Of a stretch of DNA of 64,000 nucleotides, positions 1 through 62,065 are shown piece after piece. Every line of letters starts with the position of its first letter. Position 1 is the first letter of the stretch. A program made the position numbers and the translations under genes. The notes under the pieces are model-generated. The model did not search any database. It had not been told where the DNA came from and saw only the letters and a program-made list of their open reading frames with translations. Source of the DNA: a virus (Duplodnaviria > Caudoviricetes); the IMG/VR virus record IMGVR_UViG_3300037755_000349, positions 8,068-72,067 of that record; one strand, 5' to 3'.

Positions 1-37
1 GCTGGCTGAAAACGATGGCAATGCTCGCTACCTCAAG

Positions 38-253
38 ATGCCCAATTTCACGACCTGGGCCGAGGCCGGGCTGATCCTGGAGGCGCTTCGCGCTCTTGGG
101 TTGCGCGTAGAAGTCCACGCCAATGGCTTCGGGTCGCAAGGCCAATGGAAAGCCTCCGTCGCGCATCGGGAGAGCCTTGGGGCATTTGATGGATTCGGCA
201 CCGGCCCGCTTGCCATCAGATCCGCCGCCTTGTCGTATATCGGGAGCCTATGA
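38..253 (+). CDS. hypothetical phage protein
   Basis: 71-aa ORF; ATGA-type coupling with the next ORF at 250. Confidence 0.5.
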   Translation: MPNFTTWAEAGLILEALRALGLRVEVHANGFGSQGQWKASVAHRESLGAFDGFGTGPLAIRSAALSYIGSL

Positions 254-495
254 CGCGGGCCAGGCGCACCGGTCCGCTGCCGCGCAAGCGCCGGGCGAAG
301 CGGGATAAGTTCGACCGTCCATTCCGCTATCCGCCGCATCTACAGGTAACCGCGATGCACAACTGGGGCGATCCGCTGCTGGTGGTCGAGTGCCTGGTGT
401 GCCTGCGCTCGACCGGGCATAAGACGCAAGCCAGGCCGGCGCTCGCCAAGTTCCTGAAAGCCCACCGCCGATGTGGCGCAATAGCATTGCAATAG
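250..495 (+). CDS. hypothetical basic protein with CxxC/HxxC residues
   Basis: Coupled to the upstream ORF; ECLVC...HRRC. Confidence 0.45.
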   Translation: MTRARRTGPLPRKRRAKRDKFDRPFRYPPHLQVTAMHNWGDPLLVVECLVCLRSTGHKTQARPALAKFLKAHRRCGAIALQ

Positions 496-553
496 CCGAG
501 CAACACCGAGCACAATACGGCGCCATGCAGTACCAGCCGAAGCCGCGTTACCG

Positions 554-844
554 TTGGAGCGAGAAGCGACGCCGGTGGATGCTCGTTGCCATCGGGCGAA
601 CCGGTTCCATTGGTGGCTGGCATTATGGACGCTCCTTGAGCGCTATAAAGAGCAAACAGAAGTGATCACCAATGAAACGAAGCAGCTTCGCGAAGCGATC
701 CGGCAAGGCGCCTACCCGTATCCGCAAGGCGAAGGCCACGGCGCGCAGTACAACCAGGCCGTCGCCCGCGTCTACGAACTCGAAAGGGCCGCCGAAGCCG
801 CCGCCGGCGACGCCGTGCCCATACAAATTCCCGCCGCACAGTGA
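554..844 (+). CDS. hypothetical protein
   Basis: 96-aa ORF in the co-oriented small-gene cluster; start uncertain. Confidence 0.4.
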   Translation: MEREATPVDARCHRANRFHWWLALWTLLERYKEQTEVITNETKQLREAIRQGAYPYPQGEGHGAQYNQAVARVYELERAAEAAAGDAVPIQIPAAQ

Positions 845-925
845 CCACATCGAGCAGCCCTGCATCCGCGAGGCTGGTCACTACGGCCCGCATCATTGCG
901 CCGGTAAGCGCAAGGGAGATCCGCA

Positions 926-1528
926 ATGAAGAAACAATCCGGGCGCGATGCCGTGCTCAAGATGCGAGACGAGTTCTTGTTGCTGGTGGCCGCGTACAAC
1001 GCAGTCGGCGAGTACAAGGATGCGCAGGGTGCGCAAGTTATGGCGATCGTGCTGAACGACTTCGAAGACAATCACGTGATCACAAACATGGAATGGCCGC
1101 CGCGTGTCACATCAGACCAGTACGGCCCGGCGATCGCAGAGCTGACCAAAGAGGAACTGAGCCCTCTTGAGGGCGCACTCCTGATCGACGACGCTGTGCG
1201 CGTCACGCAGGCTATGATCGACGTGCTCGCCGAACGCGGCCGACAGCAGGAGGTCGAGAAGTTCGACGCGCATCACGACGACCAGCACGTTGACGGCGAG
1301 CTGGCCGCGGCGGCAGGTATCTATGCCCTGCACAACAGTGGCGGCCTGGGGGTGCGTGATTACATTCCCGAGGAGGGCGAACCCCTGCCATCCGAAGACG
1401 CAGTGCCAAGAGGCTGGCCCTTCGCGCCGGATTGCTGGAAGCCGAAGGACGCGCGCGCCGATTACGTGCGCGCTGCCGCGCTGCTCATCGCCGAGATCGA
1501 GCGCATCGACCGGAGCGAGGGGCGATGA
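926..1528 (+). CDS. conserved phage hypothetical protein
   Basis: GGAG RBS; C-terminal DDQH..GELAAAA...WP....WKPK..R.D.VRAAAL..AEIERIDR segment that I recognise as recurrent in phage accessory proteins. Confidence 0.7.
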   Translation: MKKQSGRDAVLKMRDEFLLLVAAYNAVGEYKDAQGAQVMAIVLNDFEDNHVITNMEWPPRVTSDQYGPAIAELTKEELSPLEGALLIDDAVRVTQAMIDVLAERGRQQEVEKFDAHHDDQHVDGELAAAAGIYALHNSGGLGVRDYIPEEGEPLPSEDAVPRGWPFAPDCWKPKDARADYVRAAALLIAEIERIDRSEGR

Positions 1529-1884
1529 CACACGATGAAATCGTCGTCCACCTGGTTGCCGGCATGCTGGCCAGCAAGCCATTTAACCGCCAGGCCGAGG
1601 TCGACCAGGTCTCCGACATCGCCGCCATGCACGCGATCGCCAACAAGCACGCGGTGGCGATCCTGGAGCAACGGCGCCGCGAGAGTGAAGCGGAGGAACA
1701 AGCGGAGGCTGAGTATTACCAGAGCTGGCGCAAGGCCGTGCTCGACTGGGAGAAAGAGGCCGACGAGTTGCTACGCCTCGCCGGCCCACTCGCCATCGAG
1801 GTGCGCGAGGGTGGCGCGAGCTTGAGCAAGCGCGCCTCGGTCGCGGCTACATTCTTGAACCTGCTGCATCGGGTGAAGCCATGA
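1525..1884 (+). CDS. hypothetical protein
   Basis: ATGA overlap with the previous stop (MTHDEIVV...). Confidence 0.6.
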   Translation: MTHDEIVVHLVAGMLASKPFNRQAEVDQVSDIAAMHAIANKHAVAILEQRRRESEAEEQAEAEYYQSWRKAVLDWEKEADELLRLAGPLAIEVREGGASLSKRASVAATFLNLLHRVKP

Positions 1885-2132
1885 TCGGCATCTACGCGCC
1901 AGGCTTCGGATGGGTGCATTCGTATGAGGACACGGCGTGTGGCCGCGGCAGCGTGCTGTTCACTCTGAAGCCGGCAGCGGCGAAATCATTCCCTGGCCCC
2001 AGCGAAGCGCTTGAATTCTGGCGCACGCAGAGCAAGACCGTGCCGATGCGACCGGACGGCAAGCCGAACCGCCCGCTCACCGCATATACGGTTGAGATCC
2101 TGCCACTCACTCAGGAGCCAACACTGCCATGA
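1881..2132 (+). CDS. conserved phage hypothetical protein
   Basis: Coupled ORF; RPDGKPNRPLTAYTVEI motif recurrent in phages. Confidence 0.65.
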   Translation: MIGIYAPGFGWVHSYEDTACGRGSVLFTLKPAAAKSFPGPSEALEFWRTQSKTVPMRPDGKPNRPLTAYTVEILPLTQEPTLP

Positions 2133-2401
2133 GCGGCGACATGGGCGACGACTTCAAAGCCATGCGCGAGATGCAGCAGGAAAAGCGCGCGCGCAATCGA
2201 GAATCCAGCACGACGATCCTTCGCGATTGCGGCGTCGTGTTCAGCTCTTACAACAACGGCGTGCACCTGGTCGTCACGCACAACCAGGTGCAGGTGGATT
2301 TCTGGCCGAGCACCGGCAAGTGGATCGTGCGCGATGCACGCAAGACCGAAGGCCGCGGGGTCTACAACCTGATCAAGCAGCTCGGGGTGCGAAAGTCATG
2401 A
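2129..2401 (+). CDS. conserved phage hypothetical protein
   Basis: GGAG RBS, coupled; NNGVHLVV...DFWPSTGKW motif. Confidence 0.7.
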   Translation: MSGDMGDDFKAMREMQQEKRARNRESSTTILRDCGVVFSSYNNGVHLVVTHNQVQVDFWPSTGKWIVRDARKTEGRGVYNLIKQLGVRKS

Positions 2402-2637
2402 TCAGCCGAGAACTGAAGGCGTTACTCATCCTCGCCTTCATGACGGAGACGATGGAGGCGGCAAAGCACATCCGCCATCGGCATCGCTGCGAGTGTGGTC
2501 ACTCGTGGGAGCACACGGCAGCGGAGGCGAAGAACACCCCTGGCGCGCACACTTGCATCTGCGGGCGCCGCGTCACGAAGCCTGAATATGATTTCCTACA
2601 ACAACAAGGGGAGCAACATGGTGGCACCAGTACCTGA
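2398..2637 (+). CDS. small Cys/His-rich (Zn-binding) protein
   Basis: ATGA overlap; CECGHSW...CICG. Confidence 0.5.
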   Translation: MISRELKALLILAFMTETMEAAKHIRHRHRCECGHSWEHTAAEAKNTPGAHTCICGRRVTKPEYDFLQQQGEQHGGTST

Positions 2638-3034
2638 CATTGAGTGGACCGACGACGAACTGCGCGCCGCAGCGGCCTGGTTGCATCAGCGCATGAACGA
2701 GGGTGCGGCAGGAGATCAGTTTGCTCGATGTGAGGCGAAGCACGCCGGCATTGCATTCGTCGAGCTGCGCCAGGCGATGCAGGACAAGCCGCGGCCACGC
2801 AAGGCGCAATGGTATTACCTGGGCATGATGGTGGTGTTCCTGCTCCTGGCCGAGCTGCATGCCGGCCCGCCGGCGGAAAATGGTTGGAGCACCTATGGCC
2901 CTTTAAGCAAGCTGCTCATCTTTTTGGCCGCGCTGAATCTGGCATCTGCGTGGAGCGCGCTACGCGAATATATGCGGTGGGCCGATCGCCAGTACAATCT
3001 GAAGCGCCGCATCGAGATCGAGGCCAAGACGTGA
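2618..3034 (+). CDS. putative membrane protein (2 TM)
   Basis: GGGAG RBS; two hydrophobic stretches (YYLGMMVVFLLLA; LLIFLAALNLASAW). Confidence 0.6.
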   Translation: MVAPVPDIEWTDDELRAAAAWLHQRMNEGAAGDQFARCEAKHAGIAFVELRQAMQDKPRPRKAQWYYLGMMVVFLLLAELHAGPPAENGWSTYGPLSKLLIFLAALNLASAWSALREYMRWADRQYNLKRRIEIEAKT

Positions 3035-3140
3035 AGATCATGAGCATGCTGGCCCTGGCGATCGCGCTGTCAGGCTGCATCGTCGTTCGGTATAAGGACG
3101 GCTCGCGTCCAAGCAAACCCACGATCGAGGAGAGGGAAGT

Positions 3141-3713
3141 ATGTTCTGCCGAGTCAATCTCTATGCGCGCGGCGCACCTGGTGAACGCCTGGCGCTAGTG
3201 CAGGCTGTAACGATGCCGATCTGGCACACGCGTCCCGACGTGATCGTATGGGGCGCGCGCTCGTTCATGTGGAACAAGACCACCGAACGCTACATCGAGG
3301 CGTTCTCGGCCGCGGCGATCTGCGACAGCTTGGGCCGTTCGCTCCTGGACCTGCCCGCGGCCATGCTCGGCGGTGGCACATTCTCGAACCAGGTGAGCGA
3401 GGGTGGCGATGGGCTTACGATCGAAAAGATCAATGCGGTGATCGACGAATATTTGGGAGGCGACTTTGAAAAATCTAACAGTCAATCAGATCGACAAGCA
3501 TTTAGAGTTTCTCCAGAACGAGGCGAAGCGCCTTACGTCGATGGGCCAGCGATGGGCCGACATTCGAGCAGAGCACTACACTCCGATCATCGAGATACTG
3601 CGCCAGATTCGGCAGGACAAGCAGATGCGTGGCCTGAACGATGCGCCGATCGTGGAGTATCCGCCGATCAAGAGCGCGGCCCACGCCGGTTCCGCTGGTG
3701 GGACTGGTTCTAG
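3141..3713 (+). CDS. hypothetical protein
   Basis: GGGAAG upstream; the 3' part overlaps the next ORF, so the true end is uncertain. Confidence 0.4.
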   Translation: MFCRVNLYARGAPGERLALVQAVTMPIWHTRPDVIVWGARSFMWNKTTERYIEAFSAAAICDSLGRSLLDLPAAMLGGGTFSNQVSEGGDGLTIEKINAVIDEYLGGDFEKSNSQSDRQAFRVSPERGEAPYVDGPAMGRHSSRALHSDHRDTAPDSAGQADAWPERCADRGVSADQERGPRRFRWWDWF

Positions 3714-3864
3714 CGCGCGCCCCGACCAGGCCGCGCTCGATGCGGCGCCGGAGCTGGTGGGCAAGAAAGCGCTGGTGCTCTACTTCGAGACTCAGCAGGA
3801 CGTGGAGGATTTCATCGACCTGTACCAGCAGGTGCATCCGAAAGTGCGGACGGTGCAGCTATGA
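3466..3864 (+). CDS. hypothetical protein
   Basis: GGAGG RBS, TTG start; coupled to 3861. Confidence 0.6.
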   Translation: MKNLTVNQIDKHLEFLQNEAKRLTSMGQRWADIRAEHYTPIIEILRQIRQDKQMRGLNDAPIVEYPPIKSAAHAGSAGGTGSSARPDQAALDAAPELVGKKALVLYFETQQDVEDFIDLYQQVHPKVRTVQL

Positions 3865-4046
3865 ACGCGTGTACCTGTGGCCACGCTCCCGAGGAGCATG
3901 GCGGCGATCCAAAGCACCCCGGCTCGACCGCGTGCCAAATAGAAGGATGCGATTGCATCGCTTACGATGAGGAAGAGGGCGACGGATGGGAGGATGAGCA
4001 AGCCACACACGGCTACGGCGATGACGAGTTCCCGTTCGGCCCATAG
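3861..4046 (+). CDS. small acidic protein ending DDEFPFGP
   Basis: Coupled ORF; CTCGH...C...C.C followed by an acidic tail. Confidence 0.6.
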   Translation: MNACTCGHAPEEHGGDPKHPGSTACQIEGCDCIAYDEEEGDGWEDEQATHGYGDDEFPFGP

Positions 4047-4269
4047 GTTATGCACATCAACAACCAGGAGCGAACGTTAGGGCGACGGTGCAGCTATGAG
4101 CCGTCATCAGAGGTGAGCGATGAATGGTAACGAGACAATTGTGGACGGGCTGTTCGCCATAGCGGCGTCACTTGATGGTGTGGCGAGGGCTATTAGCAAG
4201 CTCGGGCTTGCGGAAGCATCAACGCCGATGGGCGACTCTGCAAATTTCTGAGGTCGTCAAGCACGACAC

Positions 4270-4542
4270 ATGAACACCGAAGACTTCAAAGCCAGCTACC
4301 TGGAGCGCCTTATCAAGCGACTGGTCGACGACGGCGGCCAGCCCACGCCCGAGGCCGAGAGCATCGCGACCGAGCTGTACAGCCACTGCCCGCGCTTCGA
4401 CATGGCGGAGGAGTACCAGCAAGATCCCGAGGCCGCGGCCGACGTTGCGTATGAGGACTGGGAGGAGGCCGACGATTTGGACGAGGATGACGAGTGGGCC
4501 GGCGACGAGGATCAGGAGGAGAACGAGTTTCCGTTCGGATAA
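4270..4542 (+). CDS. highly acidic protein ending EENEFPFG
   Basis: 90-aa ORF with a D/E-rich C-terminal half. Confidence 0.6.
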   Translation: MNTEDFKASYLERLIKRLVDDGGQPTPEAESIATELYSHCPRFDMAEEYQQDPEAAADVAYEDWEEADDLDEDDEWAGDEDQEENEFPFG

Positions 4543-4706
4543 CACGATGCACATCGGTGAAATGGTGATATTTGGCGCGATTGCCCTGGGCCTGAGCATT
4601 GCAGCCAGTCAGGCGCGATCGCAATTCGTTGCCGGTGTACTTATCGCCTACGCTACTATTGCGGCCACGTTGCTATTCATTGCGGCGGCAAGCGGGAGGA
4701 ACTGAG

Positions 4707-5003
4707 ATGGTTCAGCGCGAGGTCGTGTTCATCGATCGATATCGCTTGTGGAGGCTTAATGAATTGGCCGCGATCGCTTCGATCATCGACGCACGTGCTC
4801 GCTACCTCGGCGATCTCTTGGGGCCACGATCGCAGCCGTTCGATGAGTTTTTCATACACAGATCGTCGCGGGAATTAATCGGTATCGACTTCCTTGTGGA
4901 GAGCCAGACGTGCGTACTCGTGCCGGAAGGCGCGGTTTACCAGATCACCGACTTGGAAGATTTCATACAGCGTTCACGCTCGATTGCGACGAGAAGCGCA
5001 TGA
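4707..5003 (+). CDS. hypothetical protein
   Basis: GGAGG RBS before ATG 4707; coupled to 5000. Confidence 0.55.
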   Translation: MVQREVVFIDRYRLWRLNELAAIASIIDARARYLGDLLGPRSQPFDEFFIHRSSRELIGIDFLVESQTCVLVPEGAVYQITDLEDFIQRSRSIATRSA

Positions 5004-5272
5004 ACCGCCGTCAATTCCTTGCCGGCCTGGGCGCCGGCCTCGCCACGATCGCGATCACGACCAGGCTCGCCACCACGGAGCTGCTGCCGAAGAACATCAC
5101 TGCGCGGTGGGATCTCGAACGCGATACAGCCACCATCGAGATAAGCGGGACCGATCAGTATGGCAACCGGATCGAGGAGACTATTCGGGTATCGTCTGAG
5201 CAAGTGGAAAATGGCGGCGAGATCCGGATGAAGCGTTTCAAGATGATCGACACCGTGGTGGCTGGCGCATGA
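5000..5272 (+). CDS. small protein with twin-arginine (Tat)-like signal
   Basis: MNRRQFLAGLGAGLATIAITT; ATGA coupling on both sides. Confidence 0.6.
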   Translation: MNRRQFLAGLGAGLATIAITTRLATTELLPKNITARWDLERDTATIEISGTDQYGNRIEETIRVSSEQVENGGEIRMKRFKMIDTVVAGA

Positions 5273-5598
5273 ACCGTCGAGGATTCCTCGCTGCCGCCGT
5301 CTCGGCCGCGCTGGCGCCGAAGGCCCTGATCCAGCCAGGCGTGCAGGTCTTCGAGACCGTGGCCATGGCGCCGGCGATCGCTGGTGACTTCGAGATTAGT
5401 TCGCTGCGTTACGCGGCGACGGAGCGATACAGCAATGCATTGATTGCCCCGAGTGTTTTCCGCGATCAGCTCCTCGATGGGCTCAACGAAGTATTTAGAA
5501 AGGCGCATGCCGAGCACGAACCAGGTGAGTGGGAAAAGCTGTTCGCGATCGAGGCGGATCAGGAGCCGCCAACAGAGTGGGCGAAGTTATCAACATAG
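5269..5598 (+). CDS. Tat-like-signal protein carrying a copy of the major capsid N-terminal segment
   Basis: MNRRGFLAAAVSAALA; FRDQLLDGLNEVF...H.P.EW..LF.IE resembles MCP residues 7-37. Confidence 0.65.
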   Translation: MNRRGFLAAAVSAALAPKALIQPGVQVFETVAMAPAIAGDFEISSLRYAATERYSNALIAPSVFRDQLLDGLNEVFRKAHAEHEPGEWEKLFAIEADQEPPTEWAKLST

Positions 5599-5606
5599 GG
5601 GTGCGT

Positions 5607-6029
5607 ATGAAGTTCGATCCTCAGTCCTTTCGTGAGCGAGTGGATGCGCTCTTCGATCACGCCGACAACGGCATGCCGAGCGCGTACTTCGAGATCCCCG
5701 ACACGGCGAACGACTGGCAACCGATGCGCGTGCACTATCACGTCATTGCGTTCGCGGCCGAGAGCGCGGACATCGCGGCAGCTCGCGTGTTCCAGGAAGT
5801 GCAGAAGCTGCGCGCCACCGTGCCCGGCCTGGCCTGGCTCTTCTGGCGCAACGATCCGCGCATGACTTCCGAGTTCGACACGAGCACCGAGGGGATGGCC
5901 GAGGCGCAGATCGAGGACATGGAGCCGTGCTGGTTCAGGGTGAGAGTGCGCATTGCCGTGCCGAGAGGCGACTGGACGCAGGTCGAGCACGACCAGACGG
6001 AAGCGACGCGCATCCTGCTGACGGACTGA
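5607..6029 (+). CDS. hypothetical protein
   Basis: AGGGG RBS; coupled to 6029. Confidence 0.6.
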   Translation: MKFDPQSFRERVDALFDHADNGMPSAYFEIPDTANDWQPMRVHYHVIAFAAESADIAAARVFQEVQKLRATVPGLAWLFWRNDPRMTSEFDTSTEGMAEAQIEDMEPCWFRVRVRIAVPRGDWTQVEHDQTEATRILLTD

Positions 6030-6331
6030 TGTTCGCGTCGATCATCAGAGAGCGGCTCCTCGCCGGACTCAATGACGTTTTTGGCATGCAGTACAAGGCA
6101 ACCGAGCGATATCAATTCGGATGGCATAGGGACGCGTGGGCTGGTGCGCTGCCAGTACCGACCTGGGAGCATTGTCTGCTCTGCCATCGAGAGACCCCGC
6201 ATCTCGGCCATTGTGTCTATACAGCTTGGCATCCAAGCGGCAATGGCATCGCCGATCGCATGGAGGCTTACGGGCTCGACATCACGAATCCCGAGCATGT
6301 GCGCGAGTTCTCGGACGCGATGAAAAACTGA
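6029..6331 (+). CDS. hypothetical protein with MCP-like N-terminus
   Basis: TGATG overlap; RERLLAGLNDVFGMQYK. Confidence 0.55.
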   Translation: MFASIIRERLLAGLNDVFGMQYKATERYQFGWHRDAWAGALPVPTWEHCLLCHRETPHLGHCVYTAWHPSGNGIADRMEAYGLDITNPEHVREFSDAMKN

Positions 6332-6333
6332 GG

Positions 6334-6834
6334 ATGCATGTGATGGACTTGGCCGATGTGATGCACGTGTACACCGGTTCGAACGGCACGGCCACGCGTG
6401 ACATGTATCAGAAGCTCCTCGGCTACGGCCCTCGCGGCGTGATCGCAATCAACCTGTTCCGCGCGCAGAAGTGCAGCGAGCGCGCCAAGGTGTACCGAGG
6501 AGGCGGCTATCGCAGCAGTGCCTACGAACGTAAGCAATGGTCGATGAACAACCTGGTGGACGTGCTTGTCGTGCACGCGGCCGACTGCGGCATCATGTGG
6601 GGGTGGGGCACCGACGAGAAACAGGACTTCCACAAGGTCGTGCTGTACCTGGACCTACCCACCGGCCAGGTGAGTTTCCACGCCGCTGTCCGCGGACAAG
6701 GTCCGGACTACCCCGGACAATGGGACGGCCAGGCCGGCGCCTCCCCTGGCCGGATCTGTCGCTACGTGGCCGACGTATTCGCTACCATACCGATCGAGGA
6801 CGGGCGGGGCCTGGAACTACCCTTAGCCGAATAG
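6334..6834 (+). CDS. conserved phage hypothetical protein
   Basis: MHVMDLADV...VLYLDLPTGQVSFH...YPGQWDG; follows the previous stop directly. Confidence 0.65.
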   Translation: MHVMDLADVMHVYTGSNGTATRDMYQKLLGYGPRGVIAINLFRAQKCSERAKVYRGGGYRSSAYERKQWSMNNLVDVLVVHAADCGIMWGWGTDEKQDFHKVVLYLDLPTGQVSFHAAVRGQGPDYPGQWDGQAGASPGRICRYVADVFATIPIEDGRGLELPLAE

Positions 6835-6992: not shown

Positions 6993-9533
6993 ATGCCCAA
7001 GCCATACAGCTCCACGCTCGTCGAACTGTCGCCCGAGGAGCCGCGCCCCTCGATGCAGCCGGACGGCTCGCGCATCACGCGCAACGGTGACGGCACCATC
7101 ACCATCGAAGGCCAGCAGCAGGCCGGTCCGCGTATCCCTGTCGAGGGCGACTTCGACGAGAATTTGGCGCCGTACTTCACCGCCGGCGAACGGCAATTCG
7201 TCGCTGAGCAGCTCATCGAGTACTCGCGCGTGGATATCGAGTCGCGCGCCGACTGGGAGCTGAAGGAGGAGCGCTGCCTGGAGATGCTCGGGATCAAGGA
7301 CATCCCGCCAGAGCGAGATGAGTCGCCAGGCTTCCATAAGGTCACGCATCCCATGCTCGTTGAGGCGTGCGTGCAGTTCCAGGCGCGTGCGATTGCAGAG
7401 TTCTACCCGGCCACCGGCCCGGTGAAGTGCACCCCAATCGGCAAGCGCAGCCGCCGACGCATTGAGCAGGCCGATCGCGTCGAGACTTTCATGAACTACT
7501 ACCTGACCGGGATCGACGCCGGTTACTTTCCGGACACCGACCAGATGTTGCTGTACCTGCCGATGTCAGGCAGCGCATTCCGCAAGTGCTCGCCGGATTG
7601 GCGCACCGGCCTGCCGCAGCTCAGGTACGTGAAGGCCACGAATTTCATCGCGCCGTACTCGGGCTTGTCGCTGGACACAATGCCGCGCTATGCACACCGC
7701 TACACGATGAGCGGCCTGGATATTCAGCGCTCGATCGACCGCGGCATGTTCTACGACGTGAACCTGCAACCCCCTGCGATGGGAGAGGCGCGGCACTCGC
7801 GCACGGAGGACACCGCGGATTTCCGCGAGATGGTGATGCACGAGGACGATCGGCTGTACAACATCCTCGAATATCACATCGAGATGCCGCTCTCCTCCCC
7901 CGAGCTGCCGGAGCACGAGGATGGCGCCACGCTGCCGTACATCATCCTGGTCGAGGAGACGAATCGCGAGATCCTCCTGATGCGGCGCAACTGGAAGCAG
8001 ATGGATGAGCAGCGCCGTAAGCGCATTTGGTTCTCTCACTATCGGTTCTTGCCCGGCCTGGGCTTCTACGGCTTCGGCTTTCCGCACGTCATCGGCTCGC
8101 TCGGCCGCGCCGCCTCGGGCGCCGTGAACGCGCTGCTCGACTCCGCGCTGATGGCGAATCTGCAAGGCGGCTTCAAGACGAAGGAGGCGAAGAACAGCGC
8201 GAAGGAATACCGGCTTACCCCTGGCGTGTGGACCGATGTAGACATGGCCTACGACGAGATCTCGAAGGCGTTCTACACCCCGCCTTTCCGTGAGCCGAGC
8301 CCGGCCCTGTTCCAGCTCCTCGATCGCCTGGTGGCCGCCGGCCAGCGCTTCGCCTCGACCACGGAGGTGATGGTCGGGGATGCCGACAACCGCGGCCCGG
8401 TGGGCACGACGGTGGCGCTGATCGAGGAAAGCTCGCGCGTCTATACCGCGATCCACAAGCGCATGCACAACAGCGCGGGCGAAGAGTTCCGCATGCTCTC
8501 CGAGTACATCGGGGAGTACATGCCCAACGAGTACACCTACGACTTCGACGACCAGACGCGCACGCTGCTGCAAACCGACTTCGATGGCCGCGTCGACGTG
8601 GCGCCAGTGTCGGATCCGAACATCTTCAGCTCGACACAGCGTATCGCGCTCGCGCAGGCCGTAATCGAGTTGCAGATGCAACGCCCCGAACTGTATCCAC
8701 CACAGAAAGTGATCGCCGCGCACCGGCGCCTGCTGGAAGCGCTGCGCGTGCCAGATCTCGATGAGGTGGCGCCCGAGATGGACATGCCGAAGTTCATCGA
8801 CGCGGTGAGCGAGAACGGTTTGATGCTGGTCGGCAAGGGCACGCGTGCATTCGAGTATCAGGATCACCAGTCGCACATGCTGATCCACCAGAACGGTTTG
8901 CAATGGGCGATGGCCGCGAACCAGGAACCCGAGCAGCAGCAGCAGATCGCCGCGGCGTTCATGGCCCACATCCGCGAGCACCAGGCGCTGCACTATCGCT
9001 CGATGATCCAGCAGCAGCTCGGCATGCCGTTGCCGCCGCTGGATGAGGCCGGCATGCCGCAGGAAGTCGATCCGGAGTTCGAGGCCCGGTTGAGCCAGGC
9101 CGTCGTGCAGGCGCTGCCGCCCCCGCCCCTGCCTCCGGGCCAGGAACAGCAGGCCGCGGAAGGCCAGGCCGTGCTCGACAAGACGCAGGCCGCGATCAAG
9201 GCGAAGGAGATGGATGCCACCGCCAAGGTCGAGCGCGACACGATGGCGTTCGTCGGGGAGGAGAAGCGCAAGGAGGTGGCGTTCCAGAACGACCAGCGCC
9301 GGCAAAATGTGAATCTTGCGTTCGATCTGTCGCGCCAGTCCAAAGGCGCGAACCTCCAGGATCGCATCAAGGATCGCCAGGCATCCGCAGACCTGATCCG
9401 CACCGGCGTGAAGGGTAAACTGGCGCAGCGGCAGACCGAAGCGCAGGGTAAGCTGAAGATGAACCTGGCCGCCGAGCAAGCCAAGGCGAAGGCCAAGACG
9501 GTGAAAAAGAAAGCCAATGGAGCGTCACGTTGA
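6993..9533 (+). CDS. portal protein (P22-like podovirus type, long Q/A-rich C-terminal barrel)
   Basis: 846 aa; HPMLVEACVQFQARA, LPGLGFYGFG, PVGTTVALIE, PVSDPNIFS motifs; first gene of the head module. Confidence 0.85.
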   Translation: MPKPYSSTLVELSPEEPRPSMQPDGSRITRNGDGTITIEGQQQAGPRIPVEGDFDENLAPYFTAGERQFVAEQLIEYSRVDIESRADWELKEERCLEMLGIKDIPPERDESPGFHKVTHPMLVEACVQFQARAIAEFYPATGPVKCTPIGKRSRRRIEQADRVETFMNYYLTGIDAGYFPDTDQMLLYLPMSGSAFRKCSPDWRTGLPQLRYVKATNFIAPYSGLSLDTMPRYAHRYTMSGLDIQRSIDRGMFYDVNLQPPAMGEARHSRTEDTADFREMVMHEDDRLYNILEYHIEMPLSSPELPEHEDGATLPYIILVEETNREILLMRRNWKQMDEQRRKRIWFSHYRFLPGLGFYGFGFPHVIGSLGRAASGAVNALLDSALMANLQGGFKTKEAKNSAKEYRLTPGVWTDVDMAYDEISKAFYTPPFREPSPALFQLLDRLVAAGQRFASTTEVMVGDADNRGPVGTTVALIEESSRVYTAIHKRMHNSAGEEFRMLSEYIGEYMPNEYTYDFDDQTRTLLQTDFDGRVDVAPVSDPNIFSSTQRIALAQAVIELQMQRPELYPPQKVIAAHRRLLEALRVPDLDEVAPEMDMPKFIDAVSENGLMLVGKGTRAFEYQDHQSHMLIHQNGLQWAMAANQEPEQQQQIAAAFMAHIREHQALHYRSMIQQQLGMPLPPLDEAGMPQEVDPEFEARLSQAVVQALPPPPLPPGQEQQAAEGQAVLDKTQAAIKAKEMDATAKVERDTMAFVGEEKRKEVAFQNDQRRQNVNLAFDLSRQSKGANLQDRIKDRQASADLIRTGVKGKLAQRQTEAQGKLKMNLAAEQAKAKAKTVKKKANGASR

Positions 9534-10054: not shown

Positions 10055-10263
10055 CGGACAACTCGGCGCCCTTCGCGAACCGCGTGCTGAAGTGGGCGGG
10101 TGAAGAGCGCCTCGTCCTCATCGAGCACCTGGCGAAGGGTCTGGCCGAGCGCGAGTACTTGCTGACCTGCGGGCGCATCAAGCAGCTCGATGAGACCATC
10201 GCTCACCTGGAGGAGCTGTACCGCAAATACATCCAAGACGACGAGGAAGATGACGATGAGTAG
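10051..10263 (+). CDS. conserved small head-module protein
   Basis: 3' part of ORF 9763..10263 (..EYLLTCGRIKQL..); start codon uncertain. Confidence 0.45.
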   Translation: MTDNSAPFANRVLKWAGEERLVLIEHLAKGLAEREYLLTCGRIKQLDETIAHLEELYRKYIQDDEEDDDE

Positions 10264-10810
10264 ACGAAACAAGGGCCGCGTATTTTCTTTGCCGCCCGTG
10301 ATCTCGCGACCTGGCCCCTCGATGGGAGACGCGCACCGCGATCTGCACGATGCCGATCGCCACGTCGATCGCCGGCATGACACGGATGAAAACATCGAGC
10401 GATTGATCCGCGAGGCCGACAAGCAGGCCGCGCTTGAGCCGGTCGATGTGACGAACCTGCCGATGCAGCCGATGTTCTGGCACGTACTGGTCGAGCCGAT
10501 GCGCGCCTCTGCGAAGATCGGCAGCGGCGTGCTGTACCAGGCCGATGAGAGCAAGCGAGTCGAGGAGATCCAGACGACAATCGGGCGCCTGGTGGCGATC
10601 GGACCTTGCGCGTTTACCGGCAAAACGAATGCCGGAAACTTCCTCGGCGAAGGGATCGAGCGCGAGAAGTTGATCAACAGATGGGTGATGTACGCCAAGC
10701 ACACCGGCCAAGAGATCAAGCTGCGCACCGGCCACCGATTGCTGCTGCTCAACGACTCCGAGCTGCTCGCATTCGTGGAAAATCCCGAGGATTTCCGGCA
10801 CTGGCTTTGA
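10256..10810 (+). CDS. GroES-like co-chaperonin
   Basis: PMFWHVLVEP..SGVLY..GRLVAIGP.A..WVMYAKHTG.EI..LLNDSELLAFV fits the Cpn10 pattern; lies between portal and scaffold. Confidence 0.75.
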   Translation: MSRRNKGRVFSLPPVISRPGPSMGDAHRDLHDADRHVDRRHDTDENIERLIREADKQAALEPVDVTNLPMQPMFWHVLVEPMRASAKIGSGVLYQADESKRVEEIQTTIGRLVAIGPCAFTGKTNAGNFLGEGIEREKLINRWVMYAKHTGQEIKLRTGHRLLLLNDSELLAFVENPEDFRHWL

Positions 10811-10990
10811 TCGAGTTGGGCGTAGGTACGGCCAAAGAAAGCCGTACTTACGTCGTTCTTATGGGGTTCTTATTGGATAAAAATCCCATAGTTACCCTCA
10901 CTGATATCAGCCGCGGAGATTAGAAAAGCCTCCCCTCGTTGCGGAAGATCCTCGCCGCACGTCGTGCAACACACGACAACGAGGAGCAAC

Positions 10991-12133
10991 ATGGCTCGCA
11001 CACAAACCACTGGCGGCAAGGCAAAGGGGGGCAAGCAATGGAAGCCGGCCCCGACCGACCAGGAGAAACCTTTCGCTGAGATCGATCTCGGAGCGTCGAA
11101 GGACGGCATTCAGCGCATGGCTGACGAGCCCGACGAGGATGCCGACGATGATCTGCCTGGTTCCGAAGGCGATGACGGTGAGCAGCCACGTGAGCGGCGC
11201 TTCATAGATCGTAGCAAGTCCGTGAGCAAGCGCCTCGGGCGCATGGAACGCAGCTTCAACCAGCGATTTGCGGATCAGGAAGCTCGATGGCAGCGCCAAG
11301 TCGCCGATCTCAAGCGCGAGAACAGTTCGCTACGCGTCAATCGCGGGGTAAGCGAAGCCGACCAGGCCGCGCATGACAGCAAGATCGCGGCCTGGCAATC
11401 CGAACTCGAAACCGCCTACGAGAAGGGCGACACCAAGAAACAAGCCGAGCTGACCACGAAGATTGCTCAGGCACAGGGTGAGTTCGAGTCGAAGAAGCGC
11501 GCTGCCATGCTCGGCCAGCAGCAGCACCAGGACCGTGACGATCGACGCGATGCCGTCGACCAGCGCGGTGATCCCGACAACCGCGGCAACGGACCGACGC
11601 GCGAGGCGCGCAAGTGGATGCGTGCGAATGATGACTGGTGGAACGATCCGGAGTTCGAGATCGAGAAGCAGGCCGCCATCGTCATCGACAACCAACTCAT
11701 CGACGAAGGCTCCGATCCCAACGATCCGGAGCACTACGAAGAGCTGCGCGAGCGCCTGCTCGACAAGTTCCCGGACATGGAATCGGAGATTGCGATGCCT
11801 AGCGCACGCCGTGGCCGCCGCGATGCGCGCCGCGATGACGATGAAGACGATGACCTCGACGATGACCGTGGCGATCGCCGCGATCGTCGCGACACGCGTG
11901 GCGCCCGCAACGGCAGCACGCGCCGCCCGCCCATCCCGGCCTTCGCCGATCGAGGCGCAGATCGAGGTAATCAACCGCGGCGCTCCAACGGTCGCACTGT
12001 CACCCTCTCGCGCGCGCAGCGCGAGAACATGATCACTTTCGGACTCGATCCGCAGAATGACGATCATGTGAAGGAGTACGCGAAGTCCGCCGAAGAAACG
12101 ACGCGCGCCTACGCGCGTGAGGGTCGTCACTGA
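10991..12133 (+). CDS. capsid scaffolding protein
   Basis: GAGGAG RBS; highly charged coiled-coil protein upstream of the capsid genes. Confidence 0.7.
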   Translation: MARTQTTGGKAKGGKQWKPAPTDQEKPFAEIDLGASKDGIQRMADEPDEDADDDLPGSEGDDGEQPRERRFIDRSKSVSKRLGRMERSFNQRFADQEARWQRQVADLKRENSSLRVNRGVSEADQAAHDSKIAAWQSELETAYEKGDTKKQAELTTKIAQAQGEFESKKRAAMLGQQQHQDRDDRRDAVDQRGDPDNRGNGPTREARKWMRANDDWWNDPEFEIEKQAAIVIDNQLIDEGSDPNDPEHYEELRERLLDKFPDMESEIAMPSARRGRRDARRDDDEDDDLDDDRGDRRDRRDTRGARNGSTRRPPIPAFADRGADRGNQPRRSNGRTVTLSRAQRENMITFGLDPQNDDHVKEYAKSAEETTRAYAREGRH

Positions 12134-13387: not shown

Positions 13388-14293
13388 ATGATGACGCGTA
13401 GTGATTTCCGGAAGCAGCTTCAGGAGGGCCTGAATGCTGTTTTCGGTGTTGAGTACAAGCGCCACCCAGAGGAGTGGCGTGCGATCTTCGACGTGGAGAA
13501 TTCGTCGAAGGCGTTCGAAGAAGACGTGATGGAAGTGGGCCTGGGTGCCGCTCCCGTCAAGGCCGAGGGTGCCGCGATCGAGTACGACGAAGGGTACGAG
13601 ACCTACGTCGCGCGCTACCGGCACGACACGATCGCGCTGGCCTTTGCGATCACCGAGGAAGCTGAAGAGGACAACCTCTACGGCAGCGTCGGCAACCGCA
13701 TGAGCCGTGCGCTGGCTCGTTCCCTGCAACACACCAAGGAAGTGAAGGGCGCGAACATTCTGAACTTCGGATTCGACACCAATTTCCCCGGTGGCGACGG
13801 AGTTCCGTTGTTCTCGGCCTCGCATCCGCTTGGTGGCGGGGGCGTGCTGTCCAACACGTTGGCGACGCCTGCCGATCTGGCCGAAAGCTCGATGGAAGAG
13901 CTGATGAACCAGATCAGCGAGTGGACGGACGATCGCGGCCTGCCGATGAAGGCCATGATCACGAAGCTCATCATCCCGGTGGAGTTGCAATTCATTGCCG
14001 CTCGCCTGTTGATGAGCCCGTACCAGCCGGACACGGGCGACAACAACATCAACGCGATCCAGAAACTCGGTGCGATCAGGGACGGCTATGCCGTCAATCA
14101 CTACCTGACCGATCCCGACGCCTGGTTCTTCAAGACCGACACTCAGGACGGCTTGAAGCACTTCGTGCGGCGCGCTGTGAAGCGCGGCCTGGAGGGCGAC
14201 TTCGAGACGGGCAACATGCGCTACAAGGCCAGCGAGCGGTATTCGCAGGGCTGGTCGAACTGGCGCGGTGCTGCCGGATCTGCGGGGGCCTGA
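13388..14293 (+). CDS. major capsid protein
   Basis: GGAG RBS; QLQEGLNAVFG..Y, Y.H.TIALAFAITEEA.EDNLY, NHYLTDPDAWF, GDFETGNMRYKASERYS.GW. Confidence 0.9.
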   Translation: MMTRSDFRKQLQEGLNAVFGVEYKRHPEEWRAIFDVENSSKAFEEDVMEVGLGAAPVKAEGAAIEYDEGYETYVARYRHDTIALAFAITEEAEEDNLYGSVGNRMSRALARSLQHTKEVKGANILNFGFDTNFPGGDGVPLFSASHPLGGGGVLSNTLATPADLAESSMEELMNQISEWTDDRGLPMKAMITKLIIPVELQFIAARLLMSPYQPDTGDNNINAIQKLGAIRDGYAVNHYLTDPDAWFFKTDTQDGLKHFVRRAVKRGLEGDFETGNMRYKASERYSQGWSNWRGAAGSAGA

Positions 14294-14408: not shown

Positions 14409-15092
14409 ATGTCGCGTCAACTTCTGTCTCGGGCTACTGATCTTTTCCTCGGCGCCGTCGCCTACGCTCGCGCGTTCTCGGGCAAGTACGGTGCTCCTTT
14501 CTCACCCCTCGTCGTCCACAACTTCGGCGCTCCGATCATCGGGGATGCCGATGGCATCAGTGTGTCGGCGACGATCACCGCACCGGCCTCGGCCGTCATC
14601 GGTGGCGCGCTCGCCTCCGGTGGTGTCGCGACGTTCGACGTGCCGCGCAATGTCGTGGGCGCCTGGACGAACACGGCCACGGTCACGATCGTGGGCACCG
14701 ATGTGTACGGCTCGCTGATGACCGAGGTCTCGGCCAGCGGGACCTCGCACACCGGAACCAAGGCGTTCAAGACGGTCACGTCTGTCACGCCGAGCGTCAC
14801 GGTCACGGGCGCAACATTCGGTACGGGTGACGTACTCGGACTGCCCTACCGCGTGGACAAGAACAAACTCATTGCAGCCCGCGCAGGGAACGCGATCGAC
14901 GCTGGTGTATTCGTGCCGGCGGTGACGACCGATCCGGCAACCGGGACCACTGGCGATGTGCGCGGCACGTTCAATCCGGCGGTGACGTTGGACGGCGTCG
15001 AGACAATCTCGGTGGTTTTCGAGATCGCGGATCGCTCTTCCAAAGTCGGGACCTACGGCGTCAAGCAATTCGGTAGCGCCGATAGCGTCTAA
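14409..15092 (+). CDS. virion structural protein (head decoration-like)
   Basis: GGAG RBS; T/V/G/A-rich beta protein; shares TITIVGTDVYG-like motif with 15193. Confidence 0.6.
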   Translation: MSRQLLSRATDLFLGAVAYARAFSGKYGAPFSPLVVHNFGAPIIGDADGISVSATITAPASAVIGGALASGGVATFDVPRNVVGAWTNTATVTIVGTDVYGSLMTEVSASGTSHTGTKAFKTVTSVTPSVTVTGATFGTGDVLGLPYRVDKNKLIAARAGNAIDAGVFVPAVTTDPATGTTGDVRGTFNPAVTLDGVETISVVFEIADRSSKVGTYGVKQFGSADSV

Positions 15093-15098
15093 CCAGTT

Positions 15099-15173
15099 TG
15101 CGGGGTGGCGCAGCGGCAGCGCGCCGGGCTCATAACCCGGAGGTCGCAGGTTCAAATCCTGTCCCCGCAACCA
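15099..15173 (+). tRNA. tRNA-Met(CAT), initiator-like
   Basis: Full cloverleaf: TGCGGGG/CCCCGCA acceptor, GCGC D-stem, CCGGG-CTCATAA-CCCGG anticodon arm, GCAGG-TTCAAAT-CCTGT T-arm, encoded CCA. Confidence 0.92.
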
Positions 15174-15192: not shown

Positions 15193-15855
15193 ATGCGAGT
15201 ACTCGAACGAATCGCGACGGTGATCACTGCCGATCCGGACGGCATCGCCGCGTCGCAAACGCCCGCGGGAGCCGGGGACCTGGTGCTCGATGGCGCGACC
15301 GTGAAGGCCGACGACGGCACGGCCACCTACGACATCGGCGCCGCGGTGCTCAATCCGCCGCGTCGAGTGACCATCACCTCCGCTGCCGACATCTCCAACC
15401 GCACGCTCACGATCTACGGACGCGATCGCGTGGGCACCGAGATCTCCGAGACCCTCACCGGGCCGAACGCAACGACTGTCACCAGCGTACTGGTCTACAA
15501 GACGGTGAGCCGCATCTCGATCTCAGGGGCCGCGGCCGGCGCGCTCACGGTGGGCTTCGGCGCCGAGTTCATCACGCCGTGGATCGTGCTTGCGAACATG
15601 CGGGGTGATTATCACTGGCTCTCGCGGGTGTTCTTCGCTGCCGGTGGCACGGTGAACTACGACATCGAGGTGACGAGCGACAAGTACCTGCTGCAACGCT
15701 CGGGGGATTACTCCGATGACACCCACGCAGTGCTTGCCGCGCAGACGGCAAACACCGAGAGCAGCAACGATGCCAACTACGCAGCGGTGCGGCTCAAGGT
15801 GAATGCGACCGATGTGCCCGTGACGATGCGCGTCATTCCCTCTCGAACGGCATAA
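15193..15855 (+). CDS. virion structural protein
   Basis: GGAGGAG RBS; beta-rich, TLTIYGRDRVG motif. Confidence 0.65.
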   Translation: MRVLERIATVITADPDGIAASQTPAGAGDLVLDGATVKADDGTATYDIGAAVLNPPRRVTITSAADISNRTLTIYGRDRVGTEISETLTGPNATTVTSVLVYKTVSRISISGAAAGALTVGFGAEFITPWIVLANMRGDYHWLSRVFFAAGGTVNYDIEVTSDKYLLQRSGDYSDDTHAVLAAQTANTESSNDANYAAVRLKVNATDVPVTMRVIPSRTA

Positions 15856-29054: not shown

Positions 29055-30473
29055 ATGCTGCAACAACCACAGAATTCCTCGATGCAGGAGTACATGGCGC
29101 AGTACGGTGAGCGCTTGAACGCGCTACTTGGTTACGCGCCGCAACCATCGAATCTCGGTGCTGCGCAGTCCGGCGAGAGTCCAATGGTGGACGAGATGGG
29201 CGCCGCGCCAGCGTCGCCAGGCATGAATCTCGGCGCCGAACAGGCACAGCCGATGATGCAGCAACAGCCCGCGGCAGCTCCGGCCGCGCCGAGTGCTGCG
29301 CCGGCGCCGACTACTCCGCCCATGCAGAAGAACGAGAAGGGCCAGGTGGTGATCGAGTCGCGCCCCAAGGACTTCGACTTCGGTGTGAAGGATGACGATC
29401 TCAAGGATGTGAAGAGCGTCGGGGACCTGGTGCAGAAACTGCCCGAGGAGAAGGCGAACGCATACATGGATTGGTGGGAAGAGCGCTACGGGCAGGTCAA
29501 TGGCAAGTACGACGCGATGCTGGCGGAGCTTGGCCAGCGTCCCGATCCTAAGTCTCGCGATCTATCGCGCAAGGACAAATTCACGCTGCTGATGGAGTTC
29601 GGCCTCAATTTGATGAAGCACTCTCAGCAGGGCGGCGATCGAACTGGCGCAATGGGAGCCGCTCTGCACGATACCGTGCGAGGTGATCAAGCACGCCGGG
29701 AGAAGGACTTCGAGCGGCATCGGAGTCTGAGTGGCGAAATCGAAGGGCGGCGGCAGCAAGACCTCAAGGCGATCGGCACGCGCGGAGATGCGATGGTCGC
29801 GTCGCAAAACCTTGGCGCTGCCGCTGCCAAAGAAGGCCGCGAAGCGACCGAGTTCGCCGAGCGCGACGAGGAAGTCAAGAACATCGTCTATGGCGATGAG
29901 GGTGTCGTCGGTGTTACTCGCAAGGGTGAGGGGCGTACCGTCACCGATGAGACCGGCCGCGCCGTCAGATCCACACTCGGCATTGCTCGCGGATCTCGCG
30001 GTAGTGGCCGCGGTGCTGGCGGCTATGCGCCGCATAACATTGAGAAGCTCGCGACTTTTTACTCCAAGACCTACGACATCCCGATCGAGGTTGCCACCAA
30101 CATCGCGCGCTCGGAAAAGAACGCGACCGATCCGTTCAAGATGTATTCGACCATCTTGAACGGACAGCTTCGGCAATACATGCCGGCCGACGAGGCGGCG
30201 AGGGTAGCGAAGGAGTTGGTCGAGGGTGCGTTCGGTGAGGGCGCGCTCGACAGCAAGCCAGGTGCGCCGATCGAGCGACCAGGTGGCGGCGGCAACCTCG
30301 GCGCCGCGGAGCCCGCCGCCGCGCCTGCACCTGGTTCGAGTCTCGGCAGCTCCGCTCCGCCGGCAAATCTGCTCAAGTCGGGCAAGGTGACCACGATCCG
30401 AAACAAGCGCACTGGCGCAGAGGAGAAGTGGACGCTCGATGAGACCGGACAGCCCAAGCGAGTACTACGCTGA
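29055..30473 (+). CDS. DNA ejection/transfer protein 2
   Basis: Low-complexity helical ORF between ejection protein 1 and the giant gene. Confidence 0.6.
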   Translation: MLQQPQNSSMQEYMAQYGERLNALLGYAPQPSNLGAAQSGESPMVDEMGAAPASPGMNLGAEQAQPMMQQQPAAAPAAPSAAPAPTTPPMQKNEKGQVVIESRPKDFDFGVKDDDLKDVKSVGDLVQKLPEEKANAYMDWWEERYGQVNGKYDAMLAELGQRPDPKSRDLSRKDKFTLLMEFGLNLMKHSQQGGDRTGAMGAALHDTVRGDQARREKDFERHRSLSGEIEGRRQQDLKAIGTRGDAMVASQNLGAAAAKEGREATEFAERDEEVKNIVYGDEGVVGVTRKGEGRTVTDETGRAVRSTLGIARGSRGSGRGAGGYAPHNIEKLATFYSKTYDIPIEVATNIARSEKNATDPFKMYSTILNGQLRQYMPADEAARVAKELVEGAFGEGALDSKPGAPIERPGGGGNLGAAEPAAAPAPGSSLGSSAPPANLLKSGKVTTIRNKRTGAEEKWTLDETGQPKRVLR

Positions 30474-30474
30474 C

Positions 30475-59605: not shown

Positions 59606-59661
59606 AAGATAGCAGCTCCTTGAACGGACGGAGAGCGTGGGGCGTCCGAAAGGTTCGATGT

Positions 59662-59791
59662 GGCGTGGTGAAAGAGGTGGGGTACTTCGCCTGTTAAGCG
59701 GGAAACGTCGGTTCGAATCCGGCCGGCGCCTTCGGGTGCTGTCGTCTAGTGGTAGGACGCCTTATAGCTCCCTGTCTCGCCTGTTCCCGCC
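59662..59791 (+). ncRNA. Y-RNA-like (Yrl) permuted tRNA mimic, unit 1
   Basis: GGCG/CGCC terminal helix; anticodon-like arm CGC-CTGTTAA-GCG; T-arm GTCGG-TTCGAAT-CCGGC; 7-bp acceptor-like stem closed by TTCG; D-arm GTCT-AGTGGT-AGGAC. Confidence 0.85.
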
Positions 59792-61709: not shown

Positions 61710-61858
61710 ATTACGCGCACGGTGGGGATGGGTGACCGCCGTGCGGAGAGTGCCGAGGAGCAACCCAAGGCTTCGCGTGGATCAGGGTTAGATCTCCCTG
61801 GGTTATGCGTAGTACGGCCCGCCGCCTTTCCCTACGACGGTCAGCGGCGGGAGTCTTT

Positions 61859-61933
61859 GCCCCTGTAGCTCAGTCGGCAGAGCACTAGGCCCTTCAAGCC
61901 TGGAGGTCGAGAGTTCGATTCTTTCCGGGGGCG
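61859..61933 (+). tRNA. atypical tRNA (Glu-like, TTC) with anticodon arm enlarged by 2 nt
   Basis: GCCCCTG/CGGGGGC acceptor, GCTC/GAGC D-stem, CTAGGC-CCTTCAA-GCCTGG arm, AGGTC variable loop, GAGAG-TTCGATT-CTTTC T-arm; followed by CCCA. Confidence 0.8.
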
Positions 61934-62065
61934 CCCATGACAGCAGCAGCAATGAACACAGGCAGGCGGTGGGCACGTCGATGTACGGGGGATTGTTGCT
62001 GGTTCCTGCCCGGCGATCCGCACTGGGCAAATCACTGTGTTTTCTGTGGTCACCAAAGTGAGGTA

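Follow-up and report, generated by a model that had tools for sequence, protein, structure and literature searches.

Why would a tailed phage carry, several kilobases from its capsid gene, small open reading frames (ORFs) that repeat short segments of its own capsid protein? The question is raised by ORFs A and B, which lie with a third small ORF, T1, upstream of the portal gene in a 64,000-nucleotide stretch (the window) of the IMG/VR virus record IMGVR_UViG_3300037755_000349 (Duplodnaviria; Caudoviricetes). The record is complete, 72,067 bp long with direct terminal repeats of 127 bp, and the window spans its bases 8068-72067; coordinates below are window positions unless prefixed with L or G. 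The features on which the answer turns are as follows, with lengths in amino acids (aa), numbering relative to MCP, the major capsid protein, and E values from hidden Markov models (HMMs) where given.

5000-5272, plus strand: ORF T1 (90 aa), a twin-arginine-type leader and a beta-rich piece like p14409
5269-5598, plus strand: ORF A (109 aa), leader, linker, MCP C-terminal-like piece, MCP N-arm-like piece and acidic tail
5335-5436, plus strand: piece of ORF A like MCP 254-287 (C-terminal strand region), HMM domain E 3e-5
5452-5562, plus strand: piece of ORF A like MCP 5-40 (N-terminal arm), HMM domain E 4e-5
6029-6331, plus strand: ORF B (100 aa), MCP N-terminal end, MCP C-terminal strand, Cys/His-rich middle and scaffold-like end
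6254-6313, plus strand: scaffold-like motif at the C-terminal end of ORF B (residues 76-95), Smith-Waterman score 49 against the scaffold
10964-12133, plus strand: putative scaffold protein (389 aa, highly charged), C-terminal motif at about 12020-12082
13388-14293, plus strand: MCP (301 aa), Pfam Phage_capsid_4 (1e-11) and phrog_371 (3e-16)
14409-15092, plus strand: p14409, post-MCP structural protein, template of T1 and paralogue of p15193

A sequence-only reading of this DNA had reported that A and B, 7 to 8 kb from the capsid gene, repeat the MCP N-terminal segment and share the string ATERY. The resemblance is borne out. Residues 64-95 of A match MCP 7-38 with 15 identities in 32 columns and one gap; residues 1-23 of B, starting at a Met aligned with the MCP start region, match MCP 2-24 without gaps (12 of 23); ATERY is present in both, its MCP counterpart being ASERY; and the two ORFs lie 7.3-8.1 kb upstream of the MCP gene. 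The similarity also survives shuffling, with Smith-Waterman scores against MCP of 74 for A (z 9.5) and 67 for B (z 8.5), neither of which was reached in 1000 shuffles. A and B each contain an N-arm copy with 45-52% identity to that of the MCP, together with a copy of the C-terminal strand. The C-terminal piece and the leader of A, and the N-to-C join and scaffold motif of B, had been overlooked.

ORF A consists of a leader (residues 1-24), a C-terminal-like piece (residues 23-56) and an N-arm-like piece (residues 62-98), with a flexible linker between the leader and the MCP-like pieces, so that the capsid C-terminal end precedes the N-terminal end. Searched with an HMM built from 80 MCPs of the same family, A is matched at E 3e-10 in two separate domains, which correspond to MCP 254-287 and 5-40. 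The C-terminal-like piece has 15 of 35 residues identical to MCP and identities of 0.60, 0.57 and 0.46 at first, second and third codon positions; for the first 20 codons of the N-arm piece the values are 0.70, 0.70 and 0.20. AlphaFold2 modelling of A with a family alignment gives a confident N-arm helical hairpin, with predicted local distance difference test (pLDDT) values of 87-94 for helices 61-82 and 87-91; the leader is modelled as a helix, and residues 26-39 fall below a pLDDT of 50.

A has one close homologue, P0002 (44% identity, E 1.8e-9), in which the leader and the N-arm are kept and the capsid piece between them is another one. Among longer proteins, none nearer to A was present in a set of 5.8 billion proteins, and ESM Atlas gave no usable neighbour for A. 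Recent capture of the A piece from a sampled capsid gene was considered and is unsupported, there being no nearer source in the same set. The phage's own MCP is about as far from the copied pieces as the MCPs of its relatives are, ranking 3rd to 17th of 80.

ORF B is organised differently. It has no leader, and we regard it as related material and not as a member of the leader family described below. Residues 20-41 resemble MCP 277-296, such that the N-terminal end of the capsid protein is joined to its C-terminal end at a shared Tyr-Lys (YK). The 80-MCP HMM scores B at E 5e-5 with one stretch only, aligning residues 7-33 to MCP 261-290. Derivation of residues 5-23 from MCP 256-280 was rejected: this gives about 8 identities in 22 by eye and needs a 3-residue gap, versus the 12 of 23 in the ungapped N-terminal alignment. 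The end of B matches the scaffold (Smith-Waterman score 49, z 6.4-8.3, none of 2000 shuffles as high) in a C-terminal motif that is conserved in the scaffold genes of more than 20 related phages, and B directly matches the scaffold C-terminal end of the related phage L018. The product of 10964-12133 is a putative scaffold by its position between portal and MCP, its composition and its conserved C-terminal end. With this protein B shares only the motif of about 20 residues; the long charged coiled-coil body that accompanies a coat-binding motif in scaffolding proteins is absent from it. The middle of B contains a Cys-x2-Cys-His ... His-x3-His-Cys cluster (6170-6225, residues ~48-65) that could form a small knuckle binding zinc.

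T1 carries the same leader as A, the first 22 bases from the start-codon region of the two ORFs being nearly identical, and this leader matches Pfam TAT_signal at E 0.0018, under the curated cut-off. The rest of T1 resembles p14409 (Smith-Waterman score 73, z 8.8, 1 of 2000 shuffles as high), and T1 also matches the orthologous post-MCP gene of the related phages L009 (E 4e-5) and L014. In an all-against-all blastp of the approximately 95 predicted proteins of the genome, the only paralogous pairs were MCP-A, MCP-B, p14409-T1 and p14409-p15193.

Annotated capsid proteins of MinM2, Pag-Yong1, DSL-LC04, CRP-901 and HTVC023P share 51-56% identity with the MCP itself. The AlphaFold2 model of the MCP is poor (mean pLDDT 52) and searches with the single sequence or a profile found no solved structural relative. 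Neither A nor B has a Pfam or PHROG match, and neither contains a full-length Phage_capsid_4 domain (HK97-fold; ~260 positions, A and P domains); by their alignments, A and B are capsid fragments and not capsid proteins. Among 79 related phage loci, with MCPs 61-72% identical, no convincing extra MCP fragment was found, and one secondary match was borderline (E 0.013).

Leader-borne virion fragments in other phages

The leader has the motif Asn-Arg-Arg-x-Phe-Leu near the N-terminus, followed by a short hydrophobic stretch rich in Ala and Gly. Arg-Arg-x-Phe-Leu within the first 10 residues, together with a moderately hydrophobic 12-20-residue stretch, is present in A, T1 and 52 relatives. Models of twin-arginine translocation (Tat) signals recognise much of the family, with PF10518 (TAT_signal) matching 41 of 53 and TIGR01409 19 of 53 (best E 1.8e-4), and in a large subfamily the hydrophobic stretch is followed by a small-x-small site (Val-Arg-Ala and similar). 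The candidate site in A and its near relatives precedes a Pro, which would block cleavage, and the leader may therefore persist as an anchor. We infer that A and T1 are directed by their leader to, or anchored at, the cytoplasmic membrane or periplasm.

The relatives were collected with a profile built from A, P0002 and two metagenome ORFs, which was searched against 1.84 billion protein representatives. This yielded 54 cluster representatives of 56-164 residues, nearly all with the leader at the start and a few N-terminally extended or truncated. Their architecture consists of a conserved leader of about 25-35 residues and a swappable part of 60-80 residues, copied in frame from the phage's own virion proteins. 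An HMM of Phage_capsid_4-type MCPs matches 19 of 58 tested small proteins at E<0.01, and shuffled controls of family members other than A and B gave 0 of 1140 at E 0.01. The matching proteins share an order, namely leader, one internal or C-terminal capsid piece, the capsid N-terminus (2-40) and a short, often acidic tail; the internal piece may be MCP 45-71, 70-101, 73-120, 98-131, 133-148 or 254-294. The MCP residues L15, F19, Y23 and W30, all invariant or almost so among MCPs, are the counterparts of the near-invariant columns in the small proteins. Copies of the N-arm recur across a family of small proteins.

A second, larger subfamily carries about 50 N-terminal residues of P22-coat-type capsid proteins. 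With its member P0034 as query, tblastn matched annotated capsid genes at their start, and PBR31 was the phage in which the motif was checked. An apparent leader on the capsid gene of this Xanthomonas phage is an artefact, the match crossing a stop codon. Scanning with this subfamily yielded 42 further viral loci, and ten whole contigs were then fetched. The variable part matches another ORF of the same genome (E<0.01) in 8 of 15 leader ORFs; cross-genome controls for the variable parts gave 0 of 150 at this threshold, and three reached only E ~0.04. The copied targets are mainly major head proteins (SU10_MCP, Phage_capsid_3, P22_CoatProtein, phrog_9953, phrog_267 and Phage_capsid_4) and include one portal, the copied MCPs spanning four Pfam capsid families and two PHROG-only families. 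The remaining targets are p14409, copied in T1, and two large ORFs of G001 with weak matches (E 0.008). Pfam searches of the short capsid pieces detected nothing except one P22_portal match.

When MCPs were searched against their own genomes in six frames, secondary matches were confined to leader ORFs in five of six genomes, and here B was matched as well; no capsid fragment outside an ORF was found in the six. In G006 the leader ORF contains an internal piece and then the N-terminus again, and a 32-residue copy has 78% amino acid identity and 31% identity at third codon positions, with 19 synonymous-only versus 7 nonsynonymous codons. The leaders of L102 and L112 are 88% identical, with nonsynonymous divergence (dN) of 0.12 and synonymous divergence (dS) of 0.56, and their variable parts are unrelated. 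Taken from these sequences, the leaders are under purifying selection and the variable parts are replaced in a cassette-like manner; dN/dS across leader ORFs of different loci is uninformative, since the variable parts are unrelated or saturated.

Leader ORFs may occur in tandem, with two in G005 (L144:9368-10496), three in G010 (L159:1125-2977) and two here. Those of G010 are longer (180-210 aa), and one of them echoes the portal. The family genes usually lie upstream of the terminase genes, within about 1.5 kb, and in one case between the portal and capsid genes. Three matches are in bacterial assemblies, all metagenome-assembled genomes of Pseudomonadota. Scans of viral contigs with patterns from A, B and the four-sequence profile gave no matches. 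A and T1 each have the leader and a variable part copying a virion protein of the same genome, which by sequence and architecture places both in a widespread family of small phage proteins.

Possible roles of the copies

The locus and its relatives thus contain in-frame, recurrent copies of pieces of head proteins, as read from their alignments, mounted on an export-type leader in A and T1 or joined to a scaffold motif in B. Chance similarity of A, B, T1 and the family pieces is excluded by the shuffles and controls. T1, A and B are probably maintained genes and not debris, B with less certainty. On balance we lean towards the explanation that the leader/virion-mosaic proteins A and T1 and the leaderless chimera B are kept as mimics of head interfaces, either sent to the envelope or acting in the cytoplasm.

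The copied pieces would be retained because they mimic head-assembly interfaces. The N-arm copy keeps the residues that are invariant or nearly so in MCPs, and so should bind the partner of the true N-arm, either the scaffold C-terminal end or a neighbouring capsid subunit. The leader would place A and T1 at the cytoplasmic membrane or in the periplasm, where, as we favour, they would interfere with the virion or ejection proteins of kin phages that enter the cell, or would link the assembly of heads to the envelope; titration of assembly partners is another likely use. B would stay cytoplasmic and act directly on capsid-scaffold pairing. A broader version of this idea, which we hold only tentatively, is that many tailed phages of Gram-negative hosts have a gene with a fixed Tat leader and a variable slot that recombination refills time and again from the phage's own capsid, portal or other virion proteins, giving mimics at the envelope that could trap virion or ejection proteins of kin phages, in kin-specific superinfection exclusion, or could signal how far head assembly has gone to the lysis machinery.

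Several observations weigh against interface mimicry by maintained, exported products. The G+C content at third codon positions (GC3) is 0.70 in A and 0.66 in B compared with 0.80-0.86 in the neighbours, a weaker coding signal; no homologue of B of similar length was found in the 5.8 billion proteins; and none of 26 related loci covering the region has a comparable ORF upstream of the portal gene. The leader scores of A (12.5 bits) and T1 (18.6 bits) lie under the PF10518 cut-off of 22.7, those of the family are always below the cut-offs, and the A leader has no clean Ala-x-Ala cleavage site. The saturated synonymous sites could reflect recent capture from the capsid gene of a diverged relative and not selection. 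Finally, capsid shells do not enter the periplasm, leaving an exported capsid mimic with no obvious partner there.

The sequence-only reading had offered two roles for isolated N-arm mimics, as decoys for capsid-sensing defences or as modulators or poisons of procapsid assembly. This interpretation is partly supported. Its core idea of isolated N-arm mimics is supported: the N-arm copy recurs in a family that keeps the residues invariant or nearly so in MCPs, and unrelated capsid families show the same design. For A, the Tat-type leader speaks against a decoy or poison that simply acts in the cytoplasm; B lacks a leader, and for it either role is still conceivable. As decoys, the pieces would occupy the capsid-binding site of a sensor or draw the sensor to the membrane, sparing the cell abortive infection. 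Short capsid segments can trigger defence, as with the T4 gp23 Gol region and Lit or with CapRel, and family members copy different capsid segments, as expected if sensors read different epitopes; the lack of a leader on B also fits. However, binding normally activates such sensors, so that a mimic would be expected to trigger and not to block them. Pieces of a portal, a piece of the post-MCP protein and, in G001, a piece that reads by eye as Fn3-like also stand behind this leader, and almost all members retain the N-arm irrespective of their internal piece, which fits an assembly partner better than a range of sensors. We consider decoys unlikely.

A similarly low probability attaches to dominant-negative poisons that act in the cytoplasm against related phages or satellites, the phage's own capsid having diverged enough to escape. 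That the pieces are no closer to the own MCP than to those of 79 relatives is in keeping with this, as is the pairing in B of a capsid N-arm with a scaffold C-terminal motif. Nonetheless, the export-type leader on A and T1 is left unexplained, the copies in G006 and L098 are close to their own capsid proteins (78% and 53% identity), and there is no known competitor.

Least probable, by a small step, is that the ORFs are recombination debris, the untranslated or functionless leftovers of illegitimate recombination or of a tandem duplication of head genes in a variable region. The cassette does belong to an accessory stretch of 12 kb that separates the large terminase and portal genes, and is missing from the 26 close relatives, A and B have low GC3 and B is a singleton, the YK junction in B resembles a microhomology deletion, and the C-end-to-N-end order in A and P0020 resembles the junction of tandem genes; but every piece is in frame, in the sense direction and free of stops despite about 50% divergence, the six genomes hold no capsid fragment outside an ORF, several capsid families that are unrelated to one another show this design, with a conserved leader under purifying selection, the near-invariant N-arm positions are those invariant or nearly so in MCPs, and A has a 44% identical homologue that keeps both leader and N-arm. 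For A this is the weakest of the rival explanations, as the copies are biased in frame and strand, keep conserved MCP positions and recur; for B, a singleton with GC3 of 0.66, it is possible.

Literature searches gave no description of such genes. Phage genes composed of in-frame copies of capsid and scaffold interfaces from the phage itself seem not to have been described before, and still less a large family in which such copies are joined to an export-type leader. Should the products be interface mimics, they would form a natural toolkit of capsid- and scaffold-binding peptides and would point to a new layer in the competition among phages or in the control of assembly. The broader version of the idea, if true, would amount to a new class of phage-phage or assembly-control device.

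Genome setting of the cassette

The interval between the large terminase and portal genes contains about 12 kb of accessory genes and ends in a compact same-strand run, T1-A-C-B-D. Its boundaries and the remaining members of the run are as follows, together with the paralogue of p14409.

L085:912-2609: large terminase, at the left genome end
5607-6029, plus strand: ORF C (140 aa), between A and B, function unassigned
6334-6834, plus strand: ORF D, last of the same-strand run, after B
6993-9533: portal
15193-15855: p15193, beta-rich structural protein, paralogue of p14409 (z 9.0)

The T1 stop codon overlaps the A start (ATGA) and the ORF C stop overlaps the B start (TGATG). A promoter and terminator scan found neither element inside the T1-A-C-B cassette. 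ORF C has a GC3 of 0.86; it has no Pfam match and no counterpart in any fetched locus, and its PHROG match is weak (E 0.026) and to a family of unknown function. Pfam and PHROG searches gave no match for either p14409 or p15193, and these two paralogous post-capsid structural genes are separated by a tRNA-Met gene (15099-15173), one of three tRNA genes, the others being Asn (59658-59733) and Glu (61858-61937).

An accessory block between terminase and portal is an unusual layout in this phage group. The block, which includes window positions 1-5000, also encodes a DUF932 protein on the minus strand (L085:4088-5320), and two very acidic small ORFs (3861-4046 and 4270-4542) that are otherwise unrelated have a common Glu-Phe-Pro-Phe-Gly tail. 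Between portal and scaffold, 10190-10810 encodes a weakly GroES/Cpn10-like protein (Pfam E 0.007, phrog_3188 E 7e-4); an annotated GroES is also near the terminase in Xanthomonas phage PBR31. Farther downstream, a single ORF (30439-42207) spans 3922 residues; its giant product is presumably associated with the virion or injected.

Comparison with known systems

The leaders of A, T1 and their relatives resemble Tat signal peptides (PF10518, TIGR01409) in the Asn-Arg-Arg-x-Phe-Leu motif, the Ala/Gly-rich hydrophobic stretch and, in the larger subfamily, the small-x-small site; they differ in that what follows is 60-80 virion-derived residues and not a folded cofactor enzyme. Small exported phage proteins of about 100 aa that act at the envelope are familiar from the T4 RI antiholin and the Ltp- and Llp-type superinfection-exclusion lipoproteins, of which Ltp binds the tape measure protein. 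Like A and T1, they begin with a signal for export or anchoring, which in A and T1 is putative, and their genes lie close to lysis or late genes; some bind a virion protein of the incoming phage. Their sequences are not similar, however, and not one of them consists of pieces copied from virion proteins of its phage.

In P22, the C-terminal helix-turn-helix of the scaffold is the region that binds coat protein. The pairing of coat N-arm and scaffold is echoed here, in that A and B copy the capsid N-arm and B ends in the motif of the scaffold C-terminal end, although the P22 proteins and these have no sequence relation. By this analogy, the scaffold C-terminal end may bind the capsid N-arm in this phage too.

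A short segment of the major capsid protein is also the active unit in the Gol region of T4 gp23, which acts with the Lit protease, and in sensing by CapRel. The likeness lies in the use of a short capsid segment as the unit; Gol, however, lies inside the capsid protein, whereas the segments described here are separate, permuted genes fused to a leader or a scaffold motif. Extra genes for paralogues of the major capsid protein or for proteins that remodel capsids include T4 gp24, Ccm of the phage-inducible chromosomal islands (PICIs) and P4 Sid. These are full-length folds or unrelated external scaffolds, whereas A and B are assembled from capsid pieces of only about 20-40 residues.

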